A DNA stretch of 64,000 bases from an uncultured bacterium (GTDB lineage Bacteria > Chlamydiota > Chlamydiia > Chlamydiales > SM23-39). The notes below the pieces were generated by a model that was not told the origin of the DNA, searched no databases, and saw only the letters and a program-made list of their open reading frames with translations. Within the stretch, counting starts at the first letter, position 1. The number at the start of each line of letters is the position of its first letter. Location of the stretch: NCBI GenBank assembly GCA_963716985.1, contig OY970323.1:672001-736000 (forward strand), in the 5' to 3' direction. A program made the translations under genes and the position numbers. Positions 56,468-59,941 of the stretch are shown one piece after another.

Positions 56468-57812
56468 AAATTTGATTCCAAAGATGGGAGAGAAAGCCCC
56501 GCGTGGTTGGTATCCCATCTTGATGATCATCATGTGCATTAGGCTAGTGCTCCAAGCTACTATTTCATTTCGCGCAGCTCCTAAGGCGATTCATATTGCA
56601 TTTTCTCAATTCGATGCTGTCAAAGATCAACCGATTCCAACATACAAAAGCATCAGCAGATGGCTAACGCAGATAGGTCTCTATAAGTTGAATTGCCCGA
56701 AAGAACAAGCAAATGACTGGGCACTAGTCATTGACAATTCAGTCCAAATTGGTACTCAAAAATGTCTTGTAATTTTAGGAATGCGTCTGAGTAAGTTTCA
56801 GAAGGGAAAAGCACTAACTCTCGAGGACATGGAAGTACTGATTATAGAGCTCCATGATCAGTCCAACGCGAATATTGTCTGCAGGGCATTGGAGAATGCA
56901 CAGAAAAAAATTGGAAAGGCTGCTATGGTATGCGCTGATGATGGTTCAGATCTCCGAGGCGGAATTGAACTGTTTTGTCAGAAGCATGGTGCTGGCCGCG
57001 TTTTTGACACTATTCATAAAATTGGCACTTTTTTAAAAAAGATTTTCGAGGATGATTCGGAATGGCAAGCTTTTTCAACAGCTGCGGCAGCTGCCAAGAA
57101 TAAGATGCAGCAAACACAGGCAGCTCATCTCATGCCACCCAACCAAAGGACGAAGTCTCGATTCCTCAATATCGAGATTCTTGCGCGATGGGGAATTGAC
57201 ATTATGGTTGCCATAGATACGCCGAACCATCCTGACAAGGATCTGCTCGAACAATACTGTGGCTGGATTCGTCAATATACAGGGCTCATTGAAAGATTGA
57301 AACAATTTGACCTCATCAGTCGGAAAACTAGACAGTATATCCGCGAGAATGGAGTGAGTTTTAGCACAGGAGAGCAGATAGATGCATTTTTGGAAGAGGA
57401 AATGAAGTCCTTAAATTTTAATGCAGAAGCATGCGAATACGCTGGAGCGCTGATAGATTTCTTCTACGAACAGTCGAAAGTCGTCCCTTTTGGACAAACC
57501 TGGCTTGGTTCAAGCGAAATCATAGAATCTCTATTTGGAAAATTGAAAAGTCTCGAGAATGACCAAAGCAAGGGAGGCTTCACGCCGCTTATTCTGGGAG
57601 TAGCTGCGTGCGTCGGTAAAGTGGATATTGCTTTGGTGAAGGCAGCCATGACACATATAAAGATAAGTGATGTCGACACGTGGACAAGAGAACAGGTCGG
57701 ATCGACGCTACTTTCCAGAAGAAGGAAAGCTTTGGCGTTCTGGAGAAAAAAGAATTTTCAAAAAAATATTGTACACGGTGCGCCAAGAGAAGCTGCGCAC
57801 TTCTACTGGTGA
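56394..57812 (+). CDS. IS ORF B, DDE transposase with Mutator-type DxxH; 3' end interrupted by the intron
   Basis: WALVIDNS (D), CADDGSDL (D), DTIH (DxxH), SSEIIESLFGKLK (E); lies inside the TIRs. Confidence 0.75.
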   Translation: MRNAGAQINSKLKLKQLEKKNRGLENLIPKMGEKAPRGWYPILMIIMCIRLVLQATISFRAAPKAIHIAFSQFDAVKDQPIPTYKSISRWLTQIGLYKLNCPKEQANDWALVIDNSVQIGTQKCLVILGMRLSKFQKGKALTLEDMEVLIIELHDQSNANIVCRALENAQKKIGKAAMVCADDGSDLRGGIELFCQKHGAGRVFDTIHKIGTFLKKIFEDDSEWQAFSTAAAAAKNKMQQTQAAHLMPPNQRTKSRFLNIEILARWGIDIMVAIDTPNHPDKDLLEQYCGWIRQYTGLIERLKQFDLISRKTRQYIRENGVSFSTGEQIDAFLEEEMKSLNFNAEACEYAGALIDFFYEQSKVVPFGQTWLGSSEIIESLFGKLKSLENDQSKGGFTPLILGVAACVGKVDIALVKAAMTHIKISDVDTWTREQVGSTLLSRRRKALAFWRKKNFQKNIVHGAPREAAHFYW

Positions 57813-59692
57813 AAGTCCAGGCATAAAAAGTGGATAGCCACCACATTATGTAGCGAATCTTGCAACTCCGGAGGTAACAAAAGAGCTGAAGCGTAGATAG
57901 CGAAACATTCGAGCCAAAACCGTGAGGTGAATGCGTTAAGTCTCGAGAGGTATATCGTGCAAGCCGAAACTTTCGTATTAGGAGCAGGCAACAGATGGGA
58001 AGCGGGTCAAAATGGCGAAACCCTGCGATCATCAAGCACCGGGATATTAAGCATTGGCGAGCTTGTAGAGAAGTGTGACGGAACTTGGGAAGTCCTTATT
58101 GCTCTCCGAAGGGAGTATTTGTGGTTCAAGCGCCATGAACGTAAGACTGCAAAGATGGGATAAGGATGGCGGAGTCCACCATAGTAGCGAGGAACCGAGT
58201 AACGATCGGGGAGCAAAGGGTGGATAGAACAGAAACGAACGAAAAGGTGGAAACAATGTCTGTACACAGCAAAGACAGATATACAGTGTCAATGAAGCTG
58301 GATCGTATAGGAGATCTTTCGGCAGGAAATCATGATCTGGTGTTCAATAATCTGGGACATCTTATCAACGAGGAAATGCTGATGAGAGCATTTGCACAGC
58401 TTGATGGAACTAAAGCTGTAGGAATTGATGGTATAACAAAAGAAGCATATGGCAAAAATCTGGAGGAAAATCTCCGAATGCTCGCTGCGAAAGTGCATCG
58501 GGCGCAATATGCGCCACAACCATCAAAGATAGTTGAAATACCCAAAGCAGATGGAGGCAAAAGACCTCTGGCAATATCCTGCATAGAGGACAAATTGGTG
58601 CAGATGGCAGCGGGAGAGATTTTGAACAAAATCTATGAACCGCTCTTTCTGCCGAGTTCTTTTGGATATAGGCCCGGGAAAAGCTGCCATGATGCTATTA
58701 CCGCTTTGCACCAAGCAGTATACGAGTGCAAAGATGGCGCTCTATTGGAGATTGATATTCGGAAGTATTTTAACTCTATTCCACATATGGAAATGGAGGC
58801 TATACTACAGAAGAAAATCAACGATCCAAAATTCCTGAGGCTGATACATATTCTGTTGCAAGCAGAAACCATCACAAACGATGGGGTAGTGCAAAAGAAT
58901 TTAGTCGGATGCCCACAGGGATCGGTCACTTCACCGATTTTATCAAATATCTACCTACATGAAGTGGTGGATAGTTGGATAGAATCCATTCGAACATATC
59001 TCAAGGGAAAGATCTTTCCGATTCGTTTCTGCGATGATATGGTATTTGTATTCGAATGCAGTGAAGATGCGGAAAGGTTCTATAGAGCGTTTACCCAAAG
59101 GTTGCAGAAATATGGACTTGCGGTTCACGAAGACAAGTCGCATCTGCACTCCTCGGGATCGAAAAGAATAGCAGAAATGGCGGCCAAGAAACAAAAGCTG
59201 CCTGTTTTCAAATTTCTGGGATTTACCTTCTTCTGGGAAAAAGCGCAGAAAGGGAACTTCTGGAGATTAAAAGTCCGCAGCAGAGGAGATCGGAAGCACT
59301 CGAAACTTCAGGGATTATCAAAATTTCTGAAAGAGAATAAAGCCATGAAAACCTTGATAATGTTTCAACAGATACTGCCAATCATCAAAGGGTGGATCAA
59401 CTATCATGCAGTGACCGACAACTCTAGAGCGGTAAACGGATTTATCTTCCAATGCGAAAGAGCTATCTTCAAATGGATCAACAGGAAAGGTGGCAGAAAG
59501 AAAATGAGTTGGGAGAAATTCGAGAAAGTTCTGGAAAAAGTGGGCTTTCCAATGAAGTGGAAAATCAAATGCATCATAGGAACTCCTAAGGTAATCAAAA
59601 CCTAAAAGGACTGTTCGGGAGCCGGATGCGGGAAACCTGCAAGTCCTGGTTCTGAGGAGGGGGGAGCGGAGCAATCCGCTCCTCTACTCACC
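57778..59692 (+). mobile_element. Group II intron, complete
   Basis: 5' GTGCG; domain V GAGCCGGATGCGGGAAACCTGCAAGTCCTGGTTC; domain VI GAGCGGA-GCAA-TCCGCTC followed by CTCTACTCACC; RT ORF inside. Confidence 0.9.
58166..59605 (+). CDS. Group II intron reverse transcriptase/maturase, no endonuclease domain
   Basis: KAVGIDG, IPKADGGKRPL, SFGYRPGKSCHDA, DIRKYFNSI, GCPQGS..SPILSNIYLH, RFCDD, FLGF, GWINY; true start may be 58256 or 58292. Confidence 0.93.
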   Translation: MAESTIVARNRVTIGEQRVDRTETNEKVETMSVHSKDRYTVSMKLDRIGDLSAGNHDLVFNNLGHLINEEMLMRAFAQLDGTKAVGIDGITKEAYGKNLEENLRMLAAKVHRAQYAPQPSKIVEIPKADGGKRPLAISCIEDKLVQMAAGEILNKIYEPLFLPSSFGYRPGKSCHDAITALHQAVYECKDGALLEIDIRKYFNSIPHMEMEAILQKKINDPKFLRLIHILLQAETITNDGVVQKNLVGCPQGSVTSPILSNIYLHEVVDSWIESIRTYLKGKIFPIRFCDDMVFVFECSEDAERFYRAFTQRLQKYGLAVHEDKSHLHSSGSKRIAEMAAKKQKLPVFKFLGFTFFWEKAQKGNFWRLKVRSRGDRKHSKLQGLSKFLKENKAMKTLIMFQQILPIIKGWINYHAVTDNSRAVNGFIFQCERAIFKWINRKGGRKKMSWEKFEKVLEKVGFPMKWKIKCIIGTPKVIKT

Positions 59693-59941
59693 AATCGGCT
59701 GGAGCCGTCAGGAGCGAAGCGATTGGTTTTTAGTGGTCAACTATCAATTTGTCACACCCCACCTCGTAGCAAATCCATCAATGAGCTTTTCAGAAGCACT
59801 TGTGTGGCTTCTTTGATCGGAGGCGCTATCGCAAGAGTTTTTGACGTGGTTGCGACGAAGGTAATTGACAAAAATGCTGTAGTAAGAGCTCCGGCATTTA
59901 AGTGAAAAAGAGGGTTTCTCACAAAATGATTGTAGGAAAAA

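Follow-up and report, generated by a model that had tools for sequence, protein, structure and literature searches.

How does a group II intron come to lie inside the last codons of a transposase gene, and does it travel with the element that carries it? The question is raised by a stretch of 64,000 nucleotides (the window; G000:C1:672001-736000) from the closed, 2.07-Mb genome of an uncultured bacterium. Here a group IIB intron of 1,915 nt (57778-59692, plus strand) interrupts codon 436 of the transposase encoded by a 1,912-bp insertion sequence (IS), inside the last 13 codons of the gene, and four further, near-identical copies of the intron lie elsewhere in the genome. Our preferred answer, to which we give a probability of roughly 0.6, is that the intron reached one copy of this IS by retrotransposition of relaxed specificity and has been kept because the IS is dispensable.

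Exact boundaries and two possible ends of the transposase

The boundary of the intron cannot shift, because seven intron-free copies of the IS align contiguously over the junction and set both ends, and four further copies of the intron end at identical bases. The group II intron that the initial annotation had placed in the last transposase codons is thereby confirmed to the base. The intron-free copies also end as it had predicted for the spliced product, with ESAGAVRSEAIGF, and they exclude an alternative 3′ splice site at ...CCAAT. The intron (GTGCG...CTCACC) has the features of group II and of subgroup IIB, namely a GUGYG 5′ end, domain I, a catalytic domain V and a domain VI with a bulged A. 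The Rfam model group-II-D1D4-6 matches 57812-58053 with 81 bits (cut-off 49), and Intron_gpII matches 59617-59692 with 39.0 bits, slightly below its cut-off of 40. The latter span is that of domains V and VI on the plus strand, with an AGC triad, a 5-nt loop in domain V (DV), the branch A at 59686 (position -7) and a CC 3′ end. One extra U (59647-59648) was seen in the 3′ side of domain V relative to the relatives compared. The CC terminus departs from the AY rule of group II introns; it was rejected as a novelty, as it has been described for RmInt1 (PMC4238363), CC ends are frequent among class D introns (supplement of PMC7306698), and ACC is the commonest end in the intron's own clade, at 23 of 41 loci when a fixed branch-point rule is applied. 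A promoter and terminator scan gave 4 and 6 sites, the same level as in shuffled sequences.

On paper, splicing would swap the C-terminus of the transposase, as the initial annotation had proposed. Exon 1 (56472-57777, plus strand) supplies codons 1-435 of the spliced product (P0121) and one base, and exon 2 (59693-59733), which is identical in the seven intron-free copies, supplies the last 13 codons and the stop. The spliced reading ends ...IVHESAGAVRSEAIGF, whereas the unspliced frame ends ...IVHGAPREAAHFYW at 57812, its last residues being GAPREAAHFYW. Two details given earlier were likewise borne out: the stop codon ends at 59733, 14 bp before the right terminal inverted repeat (TIR) starts at 59748, and the junction, at codon 436, comes after all of the putative catalytic residues, which are predicted as D88, D156 and E352.

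The tail that is missing from the unspliced form contains G439, G447 and F448, conserved in 94, 91 and 91% of 120 homologs. Among in-frame DNA copies, some of which are near-identical (the out-of-frame rows L122, L159 and L211 were omitted from the codon counts), the first glycine is GGA in 19 of 20 and the phenylalanine TTT in 20 of 20, and the conservation of the tail looks at least partly DNA-level. Some constraint on the protein is also favoured, since the second glycine codon varies synonymously among four codons. In the 18 copies with a visible right repeat, the gap from the stop codon to the repeat is 4 nt in six and 14-15 nt in twelve. The two spacer classes differ by about one helical turn, which points to a possible subterminal DNA signal in helical phase with the right repeat; such a putative signal is located 3′ of the intron and is intact in the intron-bearing copy. 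In the structure model the tail has a predicted local distance difference test (pLDDT) score below 50, and alignments with distant homologs mostly break off around profile position 415-430.

Five intron copies and how they may have reached their hosts

The five intron copies in the genome differ by at most one base, and all five lie in sense in transposase open reading frames (ORFs), which belong to four unrelated IS families as assigned by Pfam on the free siblings or on exon 2. In the case of the window IS, one of eight copies bears the intron. The initial annotation had asked for intron-free copies of this IS and for intron-bearing ones with different target duplications; seven of the former were found, identical over 1,912 bp, and of the latter only a single one exists. 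The IS66-family host carries the intron in one of six copies. This copy has two private single-nucleotide polymorphisms (SNPs) and a mismatch in its 8-bp target duplication, whereas four free IS66 copies are identical, which argues that the free form multiplied and the invaded form did not. The IS4/Tn5-like host is a singleton variant that differs by ~8% from eight free relatives, of which two are incomplete or interrupted; the junction of these relatives differs at -12 only. In the IS200 host both full tnpA genes (2/2; G000:C1:755462 and 1972387, loci L125 and L128) have the intron straight after the ATG; the two copies differ in their flanks and have one intron SNP, in domain VI, in common, and no free full IS200 copy was found in the genome. 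The second of these copies has a ~266-bp insertion with inverted ends downstream of tnpA. Ends and target duplications are intact in the three DDE-type hosts, and the ends of the two IS200 copies match. That near-identical intron copies end precisely at each of four targets shows recent mobility.

How well the intron matches these sites was judged from its exon-binding sites (EBS) and the intron-binding sites (IBS) in the exons. The initial annotation had suggested folding domain I for this purpose. A fold of the single sequence scored no better than shuffled sequences (z 0.51) and was uninformative, and the positions, EBS1 included, were obtained instead from the Rfam alignment and covariation. 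On the plus strand, IBS2 (57766-57770) and IBS1 (57772-57777) lie in transposase exon 1. The predicted EBS2 (57949-57953), placed by eye from the Rfam alignment, pairs at 5/5 positions with the window site, two of the pairs being G-U. The delta base (57973) and EBS1 (57974-57979) occupy the Rfam-aligned loop, and delta-prime is predicted at 57939. EBS3 (U, 58047) pairs with the +1 A of all five insertion sites, covariation at +1 having been judged by eye. EBS1 pairs at just 4/6 positions at the window site, the weakest EBS1 match among four sites, the remaining three giving 5/6, 6/6 and 5/6. The position of EBS1 is well supported, as it covaries with the 5′ exon in relatives: of 38 for which both ends could be called and domain I could be aligned, 37 have the best match to their own 5′ exon in the aligned EBS1 loop, and the own-site match, G-U pairs counted, is 6/6 in 29, 5/6 in eight and 4/6 in one. 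Overall pairing at the four sites is 10, 10, 11 and 11 of 12, and T-11, A-10, A-3, G-1, A+1 and A+2 are common to all of them.

The occupation of one in eight window IS copies and one in six IS66 copies, the relaxed EBS1 pairing, and the residence of relatives in several IS types as well as in ordinary genes favour retrotransposition of relaxed specificity. In such a process the intron would be transcribed from its host IS and then splice, and its ribonucleoprotein (RNP) would reverse-splice into single-stranded DNA at partly matching sites. Insertions into ordinary genes would be purged, splicing being poor, and survivors would for this reason collect in IS elements. An invaded IS copy would make little correct transposase and so be damped, not amplified, while its intact ends would still allow the seven free copies to move it in trans. 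The swap of the C-terminus would be a by-product of where matching sequence happened to lie. Poor splicing and reduced host expression have both been reported: exon ligation of RmInt1 is 0.07% in vivo and the intron has been proposed to restrain ISRm2011-2 (PMC3035460, PMC4238363), and Ll.LtrB lowers the mRNA of its host gene (PMC6003770). Group II introns often sit in many transposases (PMC7306698), and several IS types are hosts to E.c.I4 and c-Ha.de.I1, which leave many sites free (PMC3522654). Taken as a whole, the pattern seen here strongly exemplifies this published habit of residing in IS elements. The initial annotation had proposed more, namely a two-layer mobile unit of intron and IS, with homing to intron-free IS copies. 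Neither is supported, as only one of eight identical IS copies bears the intron, EBS1 matches at 4/6, seven copies stay free and four of the five intron copies sit in other families. The presence of the intron in a single IS copy is an outcome that the initial annotation itself had named as telling against co-mobility.

Two observations weigh against relaxed retrotransposition followed by purging. The first is the IS200 pair, whose independent sites, shared SNP and want of a free full copy fit cargo transport; this pair is the best candidate for either true cargo transport or true homing. The second is the distribution of sites. Repeats make up 12% of the genome. In a crude census, repeats of at least 300 bp stood for IS elements (so that non-IS duplicates are in and single-copy IS are missed), ORFs were called greedily and bases read by the protein were ignored. 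In it 1,258 free sites pass the threshold met by every occupied site. Of these, 94 lie in sense in repeated ORFs and 34 in other parts of repeats; unique DNA accounts for the rest, with 142 non-coding sites and 988 within ORFs. That four of four sites are sense-in-repeat has a crude p of 4e-5, or 0.017 if all unique-ORF insertions were purged. Since pairing does not favour IS DNA, purging alone under-explains the sense-in-transposase pattern.

An all-sense, all-IS pattern would be accounted for directly if the intron came as IS cargo, that is, if several IS types had been invaded in a donor genome or on a plasmid and had then each brought the intron along when they transposed to the chromosome, the sense orientation being needed for transposase made in cis, from spliced RNA or, in this case, from the unspliced frame. 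We regard this as possible though unlikely. The intact ends and target duplications of the DDE hosts and the matching IS200 ends agree with it, and it suits best the IS4 host, which has no free sibling, and the IS200 pair, which shares a SNP and lacks a free full copy. The tail swap, too, may be tolerated, with tail codons that look constrained as DNA and homologs with altered ends (P0133, L166 and L185, possibly dead copies or assembly errors). Nevertheless, intact target duplications are expected whichever event came first, the intron form of the window IS occurs once against seven identical free copies, and the IS66 intron form, also present once, appears older and static.

The orientation of the copies could also be explained by targeting coupled to transcription, in which the RNP would enter solely the sense strand of transcribed DNA, or mRNA with subsequent reverse transcription and recombination. 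Non-coding and antisense sites would thereby be barred, and the purging of gene knock-outs would leave just the transposase ORFs. There is a published precedent in that group II RNPs re-target spliced mRNA through EBS-IBS pairing (PMC6003770). Five of five copies are in sense in ORFs, with none at the 142 unique non-coding sites and none at 24 antisense repeat sites. Relatives, however, occur antisense in genes (L064, L043, L033), the independent sites number only four, and four of the five copies face, by GC skew, the lagging-strand template as RmInt1 does (PMC4615759), a proportion that is itself non-significant (6/32). Such coupling seems improbable to us.

In principle the specificity might be narrow rather than relaxed, the protein reading extra bases so that true targets are few and the tolerable ones lie mostly in IS elements. 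Requiring all the letters shared by the occupied sites leaves 20 free sites in nine contexts, of which 12 are siblings of occupied IS, five are antisense in unique ORFs, one is non-coding and two are antisense in a repeat. This filter was built from the occupied sites and is thus circular, and a threshold of eight Watson-Crick pairs dropped the IS4 site. Moreover, true homing sites among the 7 + 5 free siblings of the window IS and the IS66 host should fill, and all of them are empty. We consider this explanation very improbable.

A more speculative thought, to which we give little credence, is that the intron is a cross-family brake on transposons whose excised RNP could bind and re-open the transcripts of intron-free siblings in trans. 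Action on sibling mRNAs is conceivable because those of 20 intron-free siblings (seven window IS, five IS66 and eight IS4 relatives) contain a spliced-exon junction identical, or almost so, to that of the invaded copies. If this were true, one retroelement would damp three IS families simultaneously in a genome ridden with IS elements. Silencing of intron-free transposase mRNAs across families would extend the published targeting of relaxase mRNA to genome-level control of transposition, and either the benefit of a brake or transcription-coupled insertion would explain the strict sense-in-transposase pattern. Taken on the reading that we prefer, relaxed retrotransposition into dispensable DNA, the locus offers a clear-cut natural case of a group II intron that persists in mobile DNA. 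As one closed genome with one intron, four targets of unequal match and 20 empty sibling sites, it is also a test case that allows three ideas on why introns collect in IS elements, hiding, riding and silencing, to be contrasted.

The host element and its transposase

The window IS begins with a 14-bp left TIR with a TG end (55935-55948, plus strand) and ends with the right TIR (59748-59761), which the intron leaves whole. It is flanked by a 9-bp target-site duplication (55926-55934, repeated at 59762-59770). Such a duplication is present at 8/8 IS copies, each with a different sequence, and the eight identical copies show a very recent burst of this IS. Upstream of orfB lies orfA (56102-56467, plus strand), which encodes a 121-aa coiled-coil N-terminal part of the transposase, and a run of ten A (A10, 56446-56455) in the orfA/orfB overlap is the predicted site of -1 frameshifting or slippage. 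The frameshift is predicted because orfA is similar to the N-terminal part of a homolog that is a single ORF of 548 aa (E 2e-9) and because most close metagenome relatives also have an A-rich run at the overlap; a second fused homolog matches orfA weakly (E 0.03). An IS relative of 72% identity was seen at G000:C1:154459-156289. Upstream of the window IS, a ~120-bp repeat (window 54914-55033, G000:C1:726914-727033) is identical to 1973139-1973257 and ~73-75% like more than ten other family members; it is probably a miniature inverted-repeat transposable element.

The transposase had no match in Pfam or NCBIfam profile scans. Its family is large, with 877 representatives at E <1e-30 that are labelled hypothetical, and 17 of 63 homologs give weak rve matches. 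The catalytic residues named above and a DxxH motif (D179/H182) were predicted from invariant homolog columns and the structure model, in which an RNase H-like core appears with an alpha-helical insert. The best Foldseek match was ISCth4; E-values for it, the P element and Hermes range from 6e-6 to 1e-4, with low TM-scores of 0.2-0.4. The nearest named Atlas clusters (Transposase_mut, MULE and DUF6399, at 0.79-0.82) are leads only. The host IS probably works like a Mutator-type element. The p-MULT 1-5 elements have 18-39 bp inverted repeats with a terminal C and 8-9 bp target duplications (PMC3942029), and the host IS resembles p-MULT in its predicted DDE residues with alpha-helical insert, its DxxH motif and its 9-bp target duplication, and resembles ISMich2 in its two-ORF frameshift layout. 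It differs in that its ends are TG...CA and not a terminal C, its perfect TIR is 14 bp against 18-39, its DxxH motif stands 23 residues after the predicted D2 rather than 11-19, with a longer D2-to-E span, its transposase lacks a Pfam match, and Hermes and the P element score like ISCth4. The host IS is considered Mutator/hAT-like and is not placed in p-MULT, because its repeats depart from those described in PMC3942029.

Class of the intron, its relatives and known systems

The intron encodes a reverse transcriptase (RT)/maturase (58256-59605, plus strand; probable start 58256, open frame from 58166) that scores 296 bits against TIGR04416 (cut-off 300) and exceeds the cut-offs of RVT_1 and GIIM. 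Pfam and NCBIfam scans matched no endonuclease family in this ORF, and the description of the intron as endonuclease-less thus stands. At 59027-59038 the RT has FCDD in place of YADD; relatives carry YADD, FADD, YCDD and FVDD. In a quick IQ-TREE tree of 28 RT rows (3 of 31 selected loci yielded no ORF), it falls in one clade with Kl.pn.I5 (L130) with a Shimodaira-Hasegawa approximate likelihood-ratio (SH-aLRT) support of 97, Acy.ma.I1-like sequences alongside; RmInt1 (L131) and two rows of class C fall outside this clade. Both named references, L130 and L131, form long branches, and their names were assigned by visual comparison with the supplement of PMC7306698. By this tree, which holds no references of class A, B, F, CL or ML, the intron would belong to bacterial class E. 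The endonuclease-less RT and the 5-nt DV loop, a class E feature common to class F (PMC3753933), agree with this, as does the 5′ end. Membership of class A (E.c.I4-like), D or F was rejected, as end sequences in the supplement mismatch by eye and the tree excludes RmInt1.

The closest relatives of the intron are 50-63% identical. Among 60 related genomes the best identity is 38-47%, weak matches to the intron DNA were limited to 3 of the 399 other genomes searched in the phylum, and the intron looks horizontally acquired. Its 5′ end was found in none of 80 metagenome loci of the host IS family, a weak test as these are short contigs chosen by protein match; the same loci gave one weak match to the intron 3′ end (L152) and one RT fragment upstream of the IS (L204). 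At 40 loci of intron relatives, four interrupt IS1, IS110 or IS1595 transposases in sense and one follows an ISL3 gene. Some relatives interrupt ordinary genes in either orientation (28 ORFs were scanned, many loci being without a long junction ORF), and a single intron type is found in an IS110 gene as well as, in antisense, in a gene with hexapeptide repeats (L063, L064).

Several further observations were made on related introns. Eleven of the 40 relative loci have the intron at most 9 nt from a CCCC run (L024, L030, L032, L041, L052, L053, L057, L066, L089, L101, L102), which we take to resemble the outermost bases of Tn3-type inverted repeats. At L057 a resolvase lies upstream, and L102 has a beta-lactamase gene. 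This sub-clade may target transposon ends, as RmInt2 does. In L058, L059 and L060, three copies of one relative, the 5′ part of the intron is longer by ~260 nt. The genome itself contains other distant group II RT genes or fragments of 24-38% identity, some duplicated (G000:C1:153055, 419262, 663685, 751512 and 1548794-1550286). Literature searches gave no account of this intron; the intron and neighbourhood tables of PMC7306698 may hold similar multi-family cases.

Among known systems, RmInt1 in ISRm2011-2 of Sinorhizobium meliloti (class D; PMC3035460, PMC4238363) had been offered as an analogy by the initial annotation, and aptly so. Both introns are endonuclease-less IIB introns in sense in a transposase, with a CC 3′ end and EBS1/2/3. 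Their RTs belong to different classes, and RmInt1 homes efficiently to its cognate IS, unlike the window intron with one of eight copies filled, a poor match and four host families. The class E introns Kl.pn.I5 and Acy.ma.I1 (supplement of PMC7306698; PMC3753933) share with it the RT grouping, the GTGCGCC start, the domain I layout, the 5-nt DV loop and the lack of an endonuclease. They differ in their ends, which as listed in the supplement are mostly AC or AT and in no case CC, and the window RT has the FCDD motif and is 33% identical to that of Kl.pn.I5. E.c.I4 in IS629, IS911, ISEc16 and ISEc31 and c-Ha.de.I1 of Hamiltonella (PMC3522654) show a comparable recent spread over several IS with many free sites. 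E.c.I4 targets related transposases of the IS3 family, in contrast to the four unrelated families seen here, one of them the HUH-type IS200, and c-Ha.de.I1 uses varied sites besides IS, whereas the sites of the window intron are all transposase ORFs. RmInt2 in the inverted repeats of ISRm17 (PMC4615759) is likewise near an IS end, with relaxed EBS pairing, a U-A EBS3/IBS3 pair and A at +2; it lies inside the repeats, whereas the window copy lies 55 bp inward from the right TIR and leaves the TIR intact.

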